Shown here: one piece after another, positions 17,877 through 23,079 of the stretch
How the letters are laid out: each line of letters starts with the position of its first letter
Numbering within the stretch: position 1 is the stretch's first letter
Source of the DNA: an uncultured Parafilimonas sp.
Lineage (GTDB): Bacteria; Bacteroidota; Bacteroidia; Chitinophagales; Chitinophagaceae
NCBI GenBank assembly: GCA_964598675.1
Contig: CAZRDD010000002.1
Coordinates: 1-31,483, forward strand
Length of the DNA: 31,483 nucleotides
Reading direction: 5' to 3'
Program-made: the position numbers and the translations under genes
Notes under the pieces: generated by a model
Databases searched by the model: none
What the model saw: the letters and a program-made list of their open reading frames with translations, nothing else
What the model was told of the DNA's origin: nothing

Positions 17877-18009
17877 TTTAACCACATAGCGACATTAGAA
17901 AACATAAGAAACGCATAGGTTAGATAAAGTGCATAGAATATACATAACTATGTTTTTCAAATGTCATTCTATGTTTAACTATGTTAACTACTGAATCTAT
18001 GTGGTGAAA
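17877..18009. repeat. Palindromic REP/MITE-like element with iterated CATAG/CTATG units
   Basis: Terminal inverted repeats TTTAACCACATAG/CTATGTGGTGAAA (12/13); nested stems gacatt/aatgtc and aaaacata/tatgtttt; motif polarity switches near 17947. Confidence 0.7.
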
Positions 18010-18097
18010 GCTACCCCTCCCCGTAATGGGGGAATTACGCCGACCGCAAACCAAATTACGGATCGTCATTCATTTTTTAATACGAGGAGGGGATGCT
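18009..18097. repeat. Second inverted-repeat-bounded element abutting the first
   Basis: AGCTACCCCTCC (18009-18020) and GGAGGGGATGCT (18086-18097), 10/12 complementary; internal C-run/G-run hairpin. Confidence 0.45.
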
Positions 18098-18185
18098 ATT
18101 GGCAGAAACCGCCCTTGTGTTTTATGATACTCCGGTATTGCCCGGCAGCACCTGTACTGCATAAACCATGCCCTGCGGATAGTGC

Positions 18186-18237
18186 CAAAACAAAAACGCC
18201 TTACACCAAAAGCCTGGGGCTGTATTGGAGTAAGGCG
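18186..18237 (-). terminator. Terminator of the purL-hldD-TA-proC unit
   Basis: CGCCTTAC...GTAAGGCG outer stem with inner pairing, followed by TTTTTGTTTT on the - strand, 24 nt after the proC stop. Confidence 0.75.
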
Positions 18238-18261
18238 CAAAGCCACGTTTTTTTAAAGCGG

Positions 18262-19062
18262 CTACATATCGTTTACTATTTTTTTATAGCTGGTTACCAC
18301 CCCTTTTATAAGCGATGAGCTAAAGCCCTGGTGTTCCATCTCGTTAAGGCCCGCAATGGTGCAGCCTTTGGGGGTGGTTACTTTATCAATTTCCTGTTCG
18401 GGGTGGGTGTGTTTGGTCAACAGCAGTTCGGCAGCACCTTTAACGGTTTGTGCCGCTATAAGCGATGCGGTGGCCGCATCAAAGCCAATTTCAATACCGC
18501 CCTGTATATTGGCCCTTATGTAACGCATGGCAAAAGCGGTGCCGCAGGCCCCCAGTACGGTGGCCGCATCCATCAGCTTTTCCTCAATAAACACGGTTTT
18601 GCCCAACTGGTTAAACATATCGGCGGTGTAGCCCACCTGTTCATCGCTGGCGTTGTATTTACAAATGCAGGTAATGCTCTCCTGTATGGCTATGGCGGTG
18701 TTGGGCATGGCACGGAACAGGGTAAATTCGTTACCGATAATTTCCTGTATGTCTTTAATCCAAACGCCGGTAATAACGCTTACCAGTGCATGCCTGCCAG
18801 CCTGCAGGTGCGGCTTAAGGTTTTGCAGAATTTCTTTAACCTGGAAGGGTTTTACCGCCAGTATTACCCAATCGGCATACTGCACCGCTTCCACATTGTT
18901 GTTGCTTACCAGTACGCCTTTTTCTTCCAGGCTTTTTAGGGTGGCAATATTTCTTTTGGTGATGATGATGTGTTCGGGCAATATAAAGCCGCTGCTTATC
19001 AACCCCTCTGCAATGGCTGTACCCAGGTTACCCCCGCCTATGATGGCTATTTTCTTGCTCAT
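18262..19062 (-). CDS. proC: Pyrroline-5-carboxylate reductase
   Basis: IAIIGGGNLG Rossmann motif, LAVKP, RAMPNT and V.TP.G.TI.GL. Confidence 0.97.
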   Translation of the reverse strand: MSKKIAIIGGGNLGTAIAEGLISSGFILPEHIIITKRNIATLKSLEEKGVLVSNNNVEAVQYADWVILAVKPFQVKEILQNLKPHLQAGRHALVSVITGVWIKDIQEIIGNEFTLFRAMPNTAIAIQESITCICKYNASDEQVGYTADMFNQLGKTVFIEEKLMDAATVLGACGTAFAMRYIRANIQGGIEIGFDAATASLIAAQTVKGAAELLLTKHTHPEQEIDKVTTPKGCTIAGLNEMEHQGFSSSLIKGVVTSYKKIVNDM

Positions 19063-19442
19063 TATTTTATCCGTTTTACATTGCTTTGAATGTAGTCAAC
19101 AATATTTTCAAACTCAGTATTTGAAGAAGCTATTTTAATTACAAACTGGTATGCTTCTTCTTCCGTTAAGGTAAATGTATAGTTATTTAGCCGCAGTATT
19201 ACTATGCAGGCAAGCCATCCGGTTCTTTTATTGCCATCTACAAAAGGATGGTTTTTAAGAATGCTTTCTAAAATTGCAGCGGCTTTGGCAAAAGGGGTAG
19301 TATATAATTCCTGCCCGTCAAAAGTGGCATAGGGCCTTTCTGCCGCACTCTTGAGCAAATCAATATCCCGTATTCCCTGGCTTCCGCCAAAATCTCTTAT
19401 TGAAAACGAGTGGAGCAGCAACAGGTTGTCAAGCGTTATCAT
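19062..19442 (-). CDS. doc: Death-on-curing (Doc-type Fic-domain) toxin
   Basis: Motif HPFVDGNKRTG (Doc-type Lys); G.RD..LL.SA..RP; 126 aa stand-alone domain. Confidence 0.93.
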   Translation of the reverse strand: MITLDNLLLLHSFSIRDFGGSQGIRDIDLLKSAAERPYATFDGQELYTTPFAKAAAILESILKNHPFVDGNKRTGWLACIVILRLNNYTFTLTEEEAYQFVIKIASSNTEFENIVDYIQSNVKRIK

Positions 19443-19618
19443 TGGGCAAGCTTTCTAAGGGTGTTGCCATATTGTTTAACGGCATCGGCATACATATCCT
19501 CGATGGAGGGCTGCTGTTCAAAGCTGTTTATAATCTCCAGCATTTTATTAAGCAACTGTTCGTCTTCTGTACTATCAATTAACCTTTTCAATTCAACCCG
19601 CATTTCAGCCGCGCTCAT
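19439..19618 (-). CDS. Probable cognate antitoxin, 59 aa; below the ORF-track cut-off
   Basis: Manual translation: MSAAEMRVELKRLIDSTEDEQLLNKMLEIINSFEQQPSIEDMYADAVKQYGNTLRKLAQ. Its stop overlaps the doc start (ATGA); acidic and helical. Confidence 0.85.
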   Translation of the reverse strand: MSAAEMRVELKRLIDSTEDEQLLNKMLEIINSFEQQPSIEDMYADAVKQYGNTLRKLAQ

Positions 19619-19632
19619 AACCTCAATTTTTA

Positions 19633-19640
19633 CAAATTTA
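19633..19640 (-). promoter_or_regulatory. -7 box overlapping the hldD stop codon, candidate TA promoter
   Basis: TAAATTTG on the - strand, whose TAA is the hldD stop; 14 nt upstream of the antitoxin ATG. Confidence 0.45.
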
Positions 19641-20711
19641 CCAAATTTTATCTTGCAGTAAATAGTTGGTAACGTAATCCATCACGCCATCTTCAAGGCT
19701 GTAAAAAGGTTCGGTATAGCCTGCATTGTGCAGTTTTGCCATGTTGGCCTCGGTAAAATACTGGTAGCGGTCGCGTATGTCTTCGGGCATATCAATATAC
19801 ACAATAAAAGGCTCCTTGCCCATGCCCGCATACGTAGCATTTACCAGGTGGTTAAAGGTGCGGGCCTTGCCCGTGCCCAGGTTGTATATGCCGCTTTCAA
19901 GGTTGCACATTACGCCGGGGGCGGTGGCATTGCTACTGTCAACAGTTATGCCGCCGCCAGCTTTCTGCATCATCCAGTATATTACTTTAAGCACATCTTT
20001 TACGTAAATAAAGTCGCGCAGTTGTTCGCCATCGGCAAACTCAGGCTTGTGGCTTTTAAACAGCCTAACCACCCCATCCTTACGTATCTGGTTAAACGAG
20101 TGGAATATAACACTGGCCATCCGGCCCTTGTGCCCTTCGTTAGGGCCGTACACGTTAAAAAATTTGAGGCCCGCCCAAAAAGGCGGCTGGTTTATTTGTA
20201 CAATGGCTAATTTATCAAACTCGTTTTTGCTTACGCCGTAAGGATTAAGCGGGTGCAGCTTTTCAATAATATCGTGGTCATCGTTGTAGCCCAGCTCGCC
20301 CACGCCGTAGGTGGCGGCAGAGGAGGCATAAATAAGCGGCACCTGTTTTGCGGTACAGTAATGCCATATTTTTTTGGAATACTCGTAGTTAAGCTCCTGG
20401 TGAATTTCGTAGTTAAACTCCGTAGTATCGGTACGTGCACCCATGTGTATTACAAAATCAATCCTGGGGTCGTGCAGTTCCAGCCAGTCGAAGAGGTTAT
20501 ACCTTTCCACCACGTGCGAAAAAGTTTTGCCCTCCCAGTTTTTCCGCTTCCCTTCCACGCCAAAATCATCCACAATAATAATATCTTCAAACCCCTGCTC
20601 ATTTAAAAAACGGAGCATACAACTGCCAATAAAACCGGCAGCCCCGGTGAGGATGATGCACCCCTTTTCCAAAGAAGCTTTTTGTGCGGAATTGGTATTA
20701 TTTTCTGGCAT
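19638..20711 (-). CDS. hldD: ADP-L-glycero-D-manno-heptose 6-epimerase
   Basis: TGAAGFIG, GARTDTT, YASSAATYG, YGVSK, FFNVYGP.E.HKGRMAS, RDFIYVKD and YQ.FTEA; also called rfaD/gmhD. Confidence 0.93.
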   Translation of the reverse strand: MPENNTNSAQKASLEKGCIILTGAAGFIGSCMLRFLNEQGFEDIIIVDDFGVEGKRKNWEGKTFSHVVERYNLFDWLELHDPRIDFVIHMGARTDTTEFNYEIHQELNYEYSKKIWHYCTAKQVPLIYASSAATYGVGELGYNDDHDIIEKLHPLNPYGVSKNEFDKLAIVQINQPPFWAGLKFFNVYGPNEGHKGRMASVIFHSFNQIRKDGVVRLFKSHKPEFADGEQLRDFIYVKDVLKVIYWMMQKAGGGITVDSSNATAPGVMCNLESGIYNLGTGKARTFNHLVNATYAGMGKEPFIVYIDMPEDIRDRYQYFTEANMAKLHNAGYTEPFYSLEDGVMDYVTNYLLQDKIW

Positions 20712-20762
20712 TGGTTATTTGCTTTTTACTGGTACTGCACTATTCACGTTAATTACTGCCTC

Positions 20763-23036
20763 TTAATCGTTCACTTCCATCGGCTCCACATCAGGCCCCA
20801 TTTCAATAATTTCACCGGCAGAAGCCTTTAACAGGTTGCCAATGGCATTATCGTGCTTATCCTTCCAGGCAGCTATGCTGCCCCAGTCTGCACCATTAAC
20901 CTTAACTGCACCACTGGTAACAGTGCCCAGCACCGTAACCGGAATGTTGTTTGCAGCACCTTTTTGTTTAATGGCTTCGGCCTGCTCTTTGCTGGCGGTT
21001 ACCACCACCCTGCTCTGCGCCTCGCCCAGCCAGTAAGCATCAAGCCTTATGCCCGCATCGGCAGCCACATCAAAGCCCAGTCCTCGGTGGAAGCCTTTTT
21101 CAATAAGCGTAACTATTAAACCACCTTCGCTAATGTCGTGCGCGCTTTTAATAAGCTGGTCTTTAATAACGGAGGTGACAAATTTTTGTACCGCAAACTC
21201 CTCATCCAGTTTAAAATGCGGGGCGGGCGAAAATTCCACGCCTTTAATCTTGTGCAGGTATTCTGAGGAGGCTATATCGTTCTGCTGCTCGCCAATAAGT
21301 AAAATAACATCACCGGCAGCTTTGTAATCAAGTGTTGTGCGGGTGCCAAAATCGTCCAGTATGCCCACCATGCCAATGGTTGGGGTTGGGTACACCGGCC
21401 CTTCGGGGTTTTGGTTGTAAAAGCTTACGTTACCACCCGTAACCGGCGTGTTAAATTTACGGCAGGCTTCACCCATACCGTTAACCGCCTGTACAAACTG
21501 GTAATAAACACCCGGGTTATAAGGGTTGCCAAAGTTTAAGCAGTTGGTAACGCCAATAGGCTCGCCACCGCTGCAAACAATGTTGCGGGCCGCTTCGGCC
21601 ACCGCAATCATAGCGCCTTTGTGCGGGTTGGCATATACGTAACGGCTGTTACAATCGGTGGTAACGGCCAGTGCCTTGCCGGTGCCTTTTGCCAATACTA
21701 TTGCAGCATCGCTGGGGGCGTTGGTGCTGGCATTGGCTGCGCCAACGGTGCTATCGTACTGTACGGTTATCCATTTTTTGCTGGCAATGTTGGGTATTTG
21801 TATCACCTCGTCTGCAACGGCCTGCAGTGCGGCAGTATCAGCAATATCTTCAATAGTATCCTGGGAGAAAGCCGCAATTTTTTCCAGGTATTCAGGTGCT
21901 GCATATTCCCTGGTGTATTGGGGGGCACCGCCGCCTAATACCAGCTCGTACGCAGGTATTTCGGCCTCAAGTACGCCGTGCATGTAAAATTTAAGCAGTC
22001 CGTCGCCGGTTACATGGCCAATTTCGCTGCAGGGCAGGTCCCATTTTTCAAACACTTTCAGCACAGCTTCTTCTTTGCCTTTTTCCACCACAATCAGCAT
22101 GCGCTCCTGGCTTTCGCTCAGCAGCAGTTCCCATGCCTTCATGTTTTTCTGGCGGGTAGGCACCTTGTCAAGGTCAATGTGCATGCCCGATTTGCCTTTG
22201 GCGCTCATTTCGGCGGTGCTGCAAATAATACCTGCAGCGCCCATATCCTGCATGCCCACCACGGCACCTGTTTCAATTACTTCAAGGCAGGCTTCCAGCA
22301 GTTTTTTCTCCTGGCAGGGGTCGCCCACCTGTACGGCTGGTACCTCCTCGGTCCTTTCGGCGGTAATATTGGCAGATGCAAACGATGCACCACCTATACC
22401 ATCCTTACCGGTGGCACTGCCTACAAAAAATACCGGGTTGCCCACACCTTCGGCAGTGGCGCTAACGGTTTTACCGGCCTGTACAATACCCACGCTCATG
22501 GCATTTACCAGCGGGTTGGTATGGTAGCAGTCCTCAAAATATACTTCGCCGCCTACGGTGGGTACGCCAAAGCAGTTGCCGTAATGGCCAATGCCTTTAA
22601 CCACCCCGCTTAACAGGCGTTGTGTTTTTTTATCTTTTATATTACCAAAACGCAGGCTGTTGAGCGATGCTATAGGCCTGGCACCCATAGTAAAAATATC
22701 GCGCTGTATACCGCCCACACCGGTTGCCGCACCCTGAAAGGGCTCAATGGCGCTGGGGTGGTTATGGCTTTCAATTTTAAATACTACGCCAAAGCCATTG
22801 CCAATATCCATAAGGCCTGCATTTTCCTCGCCCGCTTCCACCAGCATACGCCCACCACTGCGGGGCAGGGTTTTTAGCCATCTGATAGAGTTTTTATAGC
22901 TGCAGTGCTCGCTCCACATGCCACTGAAGGCGCACAGTTCAGTAAAATTGGGGGTGCGGCCGAGTTTTTGTTTTATCAGCTCAAATTCTTCTGCTGTAAG
23001 GCGAAGCTCCTGGGCGGTTTTTGCGGTAATTTCCAT
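20763..23036 (-). CDS. purL: Phosphoribosylformylglycinamidine synthase, small-type PurL subunit
   Basis: WSEHCSYK, ESHNHPS, QDMGAAG, LSESQERM and NCLNFGNP; 757 aa with no fused glutaminase domain. Confidence 0.98.
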   Translation of the reverse strand: MEITAKTAQELRLTAEEFELIKQKLGRTPNFTELCAFSGMWSEHCSYKNSIRWLKTLPRSGGRMLVEAGEENAGLMDIGNGFGVVFKIESHNHPSAIEPFQGAATGVGGIQRDIFTMGARPIASLNSLRFGNIKDKKTQRLLSGVVKGIGHYGNCFGVPTVGGEVYFEDCYHTNPLVNAMSVGIVQAGKTVSATAEGVGNPVFFVGSATGKDGIGGASFASANITAERTEEVPAVQVGDPCQEKKLLEACLEVIETGAVVGMQDMGAAGIICSTAEMSAKGKSGMHIDLDKVPTRQKNMKAWELLLSESQERMLIVVEKGKEEAVLKVFEKWDLPCSEIGHVTGDGLLKFYMHGVLEAEIPAYELVLGGGAPQYTREYAAPEYLEKIAAFSQDTIEDIADTAALQAVADEVIQIPNIASKKWITVQYDSTVGAANASTNAPSDAAIVLAKGTGKALAVTTDCNSRYVYANPHKGAMIAVAEAARNIVCSGGEPIGVTNCLNFGNPYNPGVYYQFVQAVNGMGEACRKFNTPVTGGNVSFYNQNPEGPVYPTPTIGMVGILDDFGTRTTLDYKAAGDVILLIGEQQNDIASSEYLHKIKGVEFSPAPHFKLDEEFAVQKFVTSVIKDQLIKSAHDISEGGLIVTLIEKGFHRGLGFDVAADAGIRLDAYWLGEAQSRVVVTASKEQAEAIKQKGAANNIPVTVLGTVTSGAVKVNGADWGSIAAWKDKHDNAIGNLLKASAGEIIEMGPDVEPMEVND

Positions 23037-23071: not shown

Positions 23072-23079
23072 CAAAGGTA
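23072..23079 (-). promoter_or_regulatory. -7 promoter box of purL
   Basis: TACCTTTG on the - strand, 35 nt upstream of the ATG. Confidence 0.7.

Follow-up and report, generated by a model that had tools for sequence, protein, structure and literature searches.

The window analysed here is a 31,483-nucleotide stretch of an uncultured Parafilimonas sp. (contig CAZRDD010000002.1), and its minus strand carries, from 23036 down to 18262, a run of five genes: purL, hldD, a 59-residue open reading frame (ORF), a 126-residue ORF for a death-on-curing toxin (Doc) and proC. The two ORFs in the middle of the run are, in our assessment, likely to form a genuine type II toxin–antitoxin (TA) module, in which the 59-residue protein is a three-helix antitoxin from a previously undescribed family. 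The more unusual result concerns where this module sits: across the bacterial family, it occupies a fixed slot before the single-copy proC gene, brings along a promoter box of its own, passes from lineage to lineage and falls into decay at the site. Hereafter, the window genome is labelled G000, related genomes G001, G002 and so on, and the loci of these relatives L0xx; contigs of the window genome itself are labelled C.

The junctions within the run had been described in a first-pass annotation of the sequence, and its readings of them hold. The 59-residue ORF overlaps doc by ATGA (19439–19442), the doc stop codon and the proC start share position 19062 in TAATG, and the pair follows 19 nt after the end of hldD at 19638. 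The box TAAATTTG contains the TAA of hldD, as had also been noted, and no transposase or att scar is visible at the locus. A protein identical to the 59-residue one is already a called protein in a public sequence collection, and proC has a single copy in the genome (E ≤ 1e-40).

The toxin was originally assigned on the motif HxFxDxNKR, and two profiles as well as the motif itself, HPFVDGNKR, bear this out. The 126-residue protein scores 68.6 bits against TIGR01550 (cut-off 38.65, E 5.1e-19) and 70.3 bits against PF02661 (cut-off 24, E 2.6e-19). Its motif is of the kinase type, HxFx(D/N)(A/G)NKR, with H, P, F, D, G, N, K and R invariant among eight aligned Docs, and the closest solved structures are E. 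faecalis Doc (9vzc, 2e-12) and P1 Doc (3k33, 5e-5). By analogy with P1 Doc, the protein would be a Fic-fold kinase, expected to phosphorylate EF-Tu and to stop translation, and is presumably toxic. In run X10, one contig over 19246–19416 lacks a single base at 19378, which would shift the Doc frame near codon 22; the cause is either an error of assembly or a variant present in the population, with the toxin inactivated.

Table 1 Positions of the genes and features of the purL–proC run in the window
Feature	Position	Strand	Basis or remark
TACCTTTG box	23072–23079	−	35 nt 5′ of the purL ATG; probably the operon promoter
purL	20763–23036	−	First gene of the run
hldD (ADP-glyceromanno-heptose 6-epimerase)	19638–20711	−	TIGR02197, 2e-109; neighbour upstream of the 59-residue ORF
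TAAATTTG, Bacteroidota-type −7 promoter box	19633–19640	−	Overlaps the hldD stop codon
Antitoxin candidate, 59 residues	19439–19618	−	ORF; family without a name; Chitinophagales, more rarely other Bacteroidia
N-terminal helical hairpin, residues 3–34 of the 59-residue protein	19517–19612	−	AlphaFold helices 3–16 and 20–34
C-terminal amphipathic helix, residues 39–58 of the 59-residue protein	19445–19504	−	AlphaFold; proposed Doc-neutralising segment
Doc (death-on-curing) toxin, 126 residues	19062–19442	−	PF02661, TIGR01550
Doc catalytic motif HPFVDGNKR, residues 65–73	19224–19250	−	Read from sequence
proC (pyrroline-5-carboxylate reductase)	18262–19062	−	TIGR00112, 4.5e-66

A small protein family encoded beside Doc

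The 59-residue protein has no match in Pfam or NCBIfam, and ten members of its family give only scattered sub-threshold matches there, with no Pfam or NCBIfam family common to two members. With the single protein as query, a word-indexed search returned three near-identical clusters and a full HMMER scan 17. The family was revealed through its neighbour, by taking the ORFs 5′ of Doc in relatives, aligning them and using the alignment as the query. In the 40 relatives whose Doc homologues were followed on their upstream side, each has an ORF of 60–63 residues there that overlaps or abuts Doc, starting with MSVAEMK... and ending with ...LLKRLA(Q). The alignment search gave 87 clusters of 54–78 residues; those with a name are all called ‘hypothetical protein’ and come from Chitinophagaceae, Chitinophagales or Saprospiraceae, and no cluster carries an informative Pfam domain. 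Among 301 sampled genomes of the phylum, the family is seldom found outside the order. It is present in a different family of the class as well, where it too is encoded immediately 5′ of a Doc gene. One genome encodes a 94-residue version with an N-terminal extension.

Conservation of the small ORF beside doc homologues was a point on which the first-pass proposal turned, and at each of the more than 20 loci inspected the small protein is encoded immediately 5′ of Doc, which makes it very probably the Doc antitoxin. The layout, with a small upstream gene overlapping the toxin gene and the pair kept in different contexts and in several families, is that of a type II TA module. At least three C-terminal classes of antitoxin can be distinguished, ending in ...QYGNTLRKLAQ, ...ENDxLLKRLA and ...KYDDLMKKLA; all three are present within the genus, and each travels with its Doc type. 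An unannotated family of Doc antitoxins is thereby defined, and the 87 ‘hypothetical’ clusters could be annotated.

The AlphaFold2 model, based on a 71-sequence alignment, consists of three helices (residues 3–16, 20–34 and 39–58) with no strand, at a mean pLDDT of 88.9. Both this model and the profile scans agree with the earlier reading of an all-helical protein without a Phd or AbrB pattern. A Foldseek search of the PDB with the three-helix model gave 0 matches, and the family profile retrieves from the PDB only designed armadillo repeats, which we take as spurious helical matches, and no antitoxin. An antitoxin of the Phd/YefM, AbrB/MazE or ribbon–helix–helix kind that has diverged past easy recognition would suit a Doc toxin, since Doc toxins commonly have Phd or AbrB as their partner (PMC2701414). 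We consider such an origin very improbable: the ten members have no match at E ≤ 1 to PF02604 (Phd/YefM), PF04014 (AbrB/MazE/SpoVT) or ribbon–helix–helix models, the helices start at residue 3 and leave no strand, and the profile search of the PDB returns no antitoxin.

A second known arrangement that the pair recalls is that of VbhA–VbhT and YhfG–Fic, where helical antitoxins of approximately 55–62 residues are encoded 5′ of a Fic-fold toxin. The comparable size, the all-helical prediction and the location of the gene would all allow the small protein to act in the same way, by placing the inhibitory glutamate of an (S/T)xxxE(G/N) helix into the active site. That motif is found in 1 of 71 members of the window family, however, and the toxin belongs with the Doc kinases and not with the AMP transferases, with a lysine in HPFVDGNKR where Fic has GNGR. 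With no match to the YhfG Pfam model either, we give inhibition of this kind hardly any credence.

We favour a role for the small protein as the antitoxin of a type II Doc module, and the segment most likely to bind Doc is its C-terminal amphipathic helix (residues 39–58, ending ...TLRKLAQ), in the manner of the C-terminal segment of Phd. Counted from an invariant Leu taken as position 0 (100% of the family), position −3 is L/M in 100% and position −4 L/V in 88%, position −7 is Y/N/H, and large hydrophobic residues occupy position −10 in 70% (mostly F), −11 in 95% (I/L/V/M) and −14 in 65%. In the window protein, the residues in this register are L57, L54, Y50, V47, A46 and Y43. The neutralising peptide of Salmonella Phd has six hot-spot residues, F56, I59, M60, H63, L67 and L70 (PMC9207808), and the register i, +3, +4, +7, +11, +14 is the same in both, at equal distance from the C-terminus, with the last hot spot 2–3 residues from the end as in Phd-C elements. 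As far as the sequences go, this likeness is one of analogy, not homology: the earlier suggestion that the C-terminus resembles a Doc-neutralising helix stands for the hydrophobic register and falls for sequence homology to Phd. Neutralisation of Doc would run through this helix.

The comparison with the whole Phd–Doc system of phage P1 and Salmonella (PF02604+PF02661; 3k33, 3dd7) gives a similar mixture. The toxin family and the catalytic motif are shared, the antitoxin gene likewise lies upstream and overlaps the toxin gene, and the neutralising segment of Phd is at the extreme C-terminus, as is proposed for the window protein. By contrast, Phd/YefM antitoxins have a beta-rich DNA-binding fold where the window protein has a helical hairpin, and sequence homology between the two antitoxins is undetectable in either half. 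The Phd–Doc system of E. faecalis, which includes the closest solved Doc and is also a chromosomal module, again has an antitoxin with a beta-sheet DNA-binding domain, unlike the helical window protein.

The N-terminal hairpin is probably a separate module, similar to the start of antitoxins that accompany ParE toxins elsewhere in this genome. When the complete ORF set of the window genome is searched with the family HMM, only marginal matches appear besides the protein itself (E 1–6), and two of the top eight are small ORFs directly 5′ of two of the four ParE-family toxin genes of the genome. These ParE-partner proteins have no matching Pfam or NCBIfam model. In hhalign, residues 2–32 of the window antitoxin align with residues 3–32 of the ParE-partner family (P=0.001, probability 21%), a comparison that is underpowered because the seeded homology search gave only five relatives for the ParE-partner profile. 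AlphaFold places the helices of the ParE partner at residues 2–17 and 20–41, with low confidence (pLDDT 70). The ParE/RelE partners at C3:4095–4346 and C96:11277–11519 thus share with the window protein an N-terminal helix–turn–helix pattern and similar helix boundaries, whereas their C-terminal toxin-binding parts are unrelated and serve another toxin. The first-pass view that the N-terminus looks like the helical antitoxins of RelE/ParE toxins comes down to a weak likeness and is not established. The hairpin might serve for dimerisation or for DNA binding. Together with two further small helical proteins of the genome (C230:7739–7987 and C422:2724–2912), whose N-terminal pattern is also like that of the Doc antitoxin and which likewise lack a Pfam or NCBIfam model, the C3 and C96 proteins constitute a second unannotated antitoxin family of this genome, two of its members being directly 5′ of ParE-family toxins.

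Experiments on a PanA–Doc pair have demonstrated a Phd-C element that is portable and is joined to an N-terminal domain of unrelated origin (PMC10440598). Corynebacterium doosanense Doc with its PanA_Phd-C antitoxin, described in the NetFlax study, resembles the window pair in combining a portable C-terminal helical element that neutralises Doc with an unrelated N-terminal domain. There, the N-terminus is a large Panacea domain, whereas here it is a hairpin of about 35 residues in a protein of 59 residues overall. Since modular Phd-C antitoxins are already described, the window architecture is a variant and not a new principle, and the shuffled architecture suggested in the first-pass annotation fits the modular model without being the first of its kind. 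To the view that antitoxins are assembled from exchangeable neutralising and accessory modules, the family contributes an example that is all-helical and very small.

Several points weigh against this picture of the antitoxin. The profile of the C-terminal part does not retrieve the Phd chain from the PDB at E ≤ 10, and the spacing i, +3, +4, +7, +11, +14 is common to many amphipathic helices. E. faecalis Doc is neutralised through antitoxin-driven dimerisation and not through occlusion of the active site (PMC13034048), which means that a Phd-type mechanism is not a given for the window Doc. The comparison of the hairpin with the ParE partners was picked after the marginal matches had been seen, and the likeness that it returned is weak.

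The slot upstream of proC

In four other species of the genus, hldD, the antitoxin gene, doc and proC follow each other in that order, and a fifth (G001) has, in the same place, an antitoxin gene with a frameshift and a Doc that has lost a large internal part. Of 201 sampled genomes of the bacterial family, 30 encode a Doc homologue, and in 11 of these 30 it directly precedes proC, with both genes on one contig and one strand; the addition of G002 and G004 brings this arrangement to 13 genomes from at least nine genera. In about two thirds of the Doc-bearing genomes, the same antitoxin–Doc pair is found away from proC. The gene 5′ of the trio is usually hldD, is purL in G117 and is a gene for a DUF2279 lipoprotein in G209 and G075. 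A trio that stands behind three different upstream genes in at least nine genera is linked to proC, not to hldD. At every locus with an intact Doc, the gap between Doc and proC is 0–14 nt. A literature search for a link between Doc and proC found nothing relevant.

The slot can also be vacant or hold something else. In G024, the hldD TAA is followed by four bases (tatt) and the proC ATG. Insertion into the hldD–proC junction has happened, and it is old or recurrent; the first-pass proposal of a pair spliced into a purL–hldD–proC operon is upheld by the empty junction of G024 and needs correction in that a trio conserved in at least nine genera is not a one-off event. In G007, the slot (L021:2301–2808) contains a 53-residue ORF and a truncated or frameshifted PIN (VapC) gene that covers only profile positions 59–118 of 120, and the PIN stop codon runs into the proC ATG as TAATG, in the way seen for Doc in the window. 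Depending on the genome, the slot before proC is therefore empty or is filled by one of three divergent Doc allele classes, a PIN module or decaying remnants.

A second TA pair lies between purL and hldD in G005 and in near-identical metagenome contigs (L048:8624–9281; L037:2267–2939). It consists of an ORF of 73–75 residues and a PIN/VapC gene of 149–153 residues that abuts the hldD start. In the window, only a 51-nt gap separates purL from hldD (20712–20762). The purL–hldD gap is a second TA slot of the operon, filled or vacant by genome.

Comparison with G005, the closest relative, with a proC protein 96% identical to that of the window, indicates how the first slot has changed hands. At the DNA level, the two genomes are 90–98% identical over hldD, 85.7% over purL and approximately 85% over proC from its first codons, and identity drops, with sharp edges, to 35–50% over precisely the segment between the antitoxin ATG and the Doc stop, with a value of about 40% across the cassette. 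The window Doc is 40–45% identical to the Docs of its own genus; its identity to those of G209, G100 and G063 is 64%, 57% and 56%, and the proC proteins of these three genomes are only 69–86% identical to that of the window. In a maximum-likelihood tree of Doc, the window protein pairs with that of G209, and both genus monophyly (p-AU 0.0014) and a pairing of G000 with G005 (p-AU 5e-5) are rejected. In the proC tree, the genus falls on one side of a branch, and G005 is nearest to the window. Rejection of the genus clade by the Doc tree shows that the cassette was replaced, and the sequences mark that of the window as an allele swapped in relative to G005.

At one locus, replacement looks to have been caught midway. 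G075 (L047:1544–1690) has an orphan 49-residue antitoxin remnant of the QY..TL class that lacks a Doc of its own. The remnant lies directly 5′ of a complete antitoxin–Doc pair of another class, which is followed by proC, and two TATTTTTG boxes lie 5′ of the orphan. The edges of the swapped segment in the window fall in conserved sequence on both sides: the left edge is an island made of the box and ATGAGYGTAGCAGAAATGA, and the right edge is the highly conserved 5′ end of proC. We infer that these conserved islands provide the exchange route, and cassettes have probably passed between lineages by recombination in the left island, which holds the promoter and the first antitoxin codons, and in the 5′ part of proC. 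As no homology exists between G000 and G005 3′ of proC, the right end of the exchange can be placed only ‘at or after the proC start’.

Several cassettes are broken. The G001 antitoxin (L015:1047–1420) is frameshifted by a short duplication and its Doc is without the N-terminal two thirds, and a stop codon interrupts Doc in G010 (L010) and G024 (L008). These observations bear on the idea that Doc has been domesticated, as a regulated translation brake tied to the supply of proline or amino acids in general, with the small protein as a regulatory partner instead of a classical labile antitoxin. The long-lived and family-wide link to proC in at least nine genera agrees with such a role, as do the catalytic motifs, which are intact at most loci. 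We nevertheless find domestication quite unlikely, given that the alleles are replaced horizontally and differ by 40–60% within one genus, that several copies are pseudogenes, that most Doc-bearing genomes (about two thirds) have the pair away from proC and that a PIN-type module fills the slot in G007.

The putative promoter box and transcription of proC

The −7 consensus of Bacteroidota promoters is TAnnTTTG. This pattern is depleted in the window, with 28 sites compared with 41.6 expected from shuffles. The minus strand from 23100 to 18262 has just two such sites, one 35 nt 5′ of the purL ATG and one 14 nt 5′ of the antitoxin ATG; on this strand, there is none between the antitoxin and proC. 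At each locus read, a box precedes the antitoxin ATG by 14–17 nt. The same holds where hldD is not the upstream gene, the box being TAAATTTG after purL in G117 and TATTTTTG after the DUF2279 gene in G209; at the empty hldD–proC junction of G024, it is absent. Present without hldD and missing from the empty site, the box is thus part of the cassette, and that it overlaps the hldD stop codon is incidental. The −33 region, in which a TTTG element was sought, falls within conserved hldD codons and reads TATTTA in the window and TATTTG in G005 and G004.

With no box and almost no spacer between Doc and proC, proC must be transcribed through the cassette. Transcription of proC through the module could start at the cassette promoter, arrive by read-through from purL and hldD, or both. 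Such dependence of proC on the module would account for the trio having held together when its surroundings were rearranged. The box is plausibly an active promoter, and proC may depend on it. Contigs from four runs that are guessed to be RNA span both the hldD–antitoxin and the Doc–proC junctions, at low depth.

One way to join these observations, which we put forward as possible though rather unlikely, is that the cassette has become entrenched by promoter capture. It would give single-copy proC its promoter and translational coupling, and it would no longer be cleanly deletable or separable from the gene behind it. The parts that have survived decay in G001, namely the box, the antitoxin start and the 3′ end of Doc beside proC, fit a need for exactly those parts in proC expression. 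If the cassette is held in this way, proline synthesis would be tied to the autoregulation of the module, although control of proline synthesis by the module is speculation at this point. Alleles would swap between genera through the conserved flanks, possibly under diversifying selection, for example for phage defence, and the arrangement would offer a specific and testable way in which a chromosomal TA module could last as long as a bacterial family does.

Two observations weigh on the other side. The junction-spanning contigs fit co-transcription and read-through from hldD as well as they fit an internal promoter. Cassettes are decaying in G001, G010, G024 and G184; Doc is thus dispensable, which argues against a fixed physiological role.

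In an alternative account, the module was inserted at a permissive junction as a neutral selfish element. In that case, proC would be read through from the purL/hldD promoter, the cassette promoter and the tight junction would be inconsequential for proline, and the recurrence before proC would reflect shared descent and a lack of viable breakpoints, not function. The empty site shows the native arrangement, one operon in which 4 nt separate hldD from proC, the probable-RNA contigs cross the hldD–antitoxin junction, the TACCTTTG box lies 5′ of purL, cassettes decay, and the second TA slot between purL and hldD is filled or vacant among close relatives. We regard this account as a serious contender that still falls short of probable. 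It is at odds with the trio being kept without hldD or purL upstream in G209 and G075, where only the cassette box precedes proC, and with the retention of the box, the antitoxin start and the 3′ end of Doc in G001.

Whether held by promoter capture or not, the slot, placed before an essential biosynthetic gene, offers a clean natural system in which to ask why chromosomal TA modules persist, as allele exchange, decay and possible promoter capture can be compared at one site. On the other side of proC, positions 17880–18260 of the window contain palindromic or GC-hairpin elements (for example, CCCCTCCCCGTAATGGGGG near 18040–18060). This stretch has no counterpart in G005, and synteny between the two genomes stops there, right after proC.

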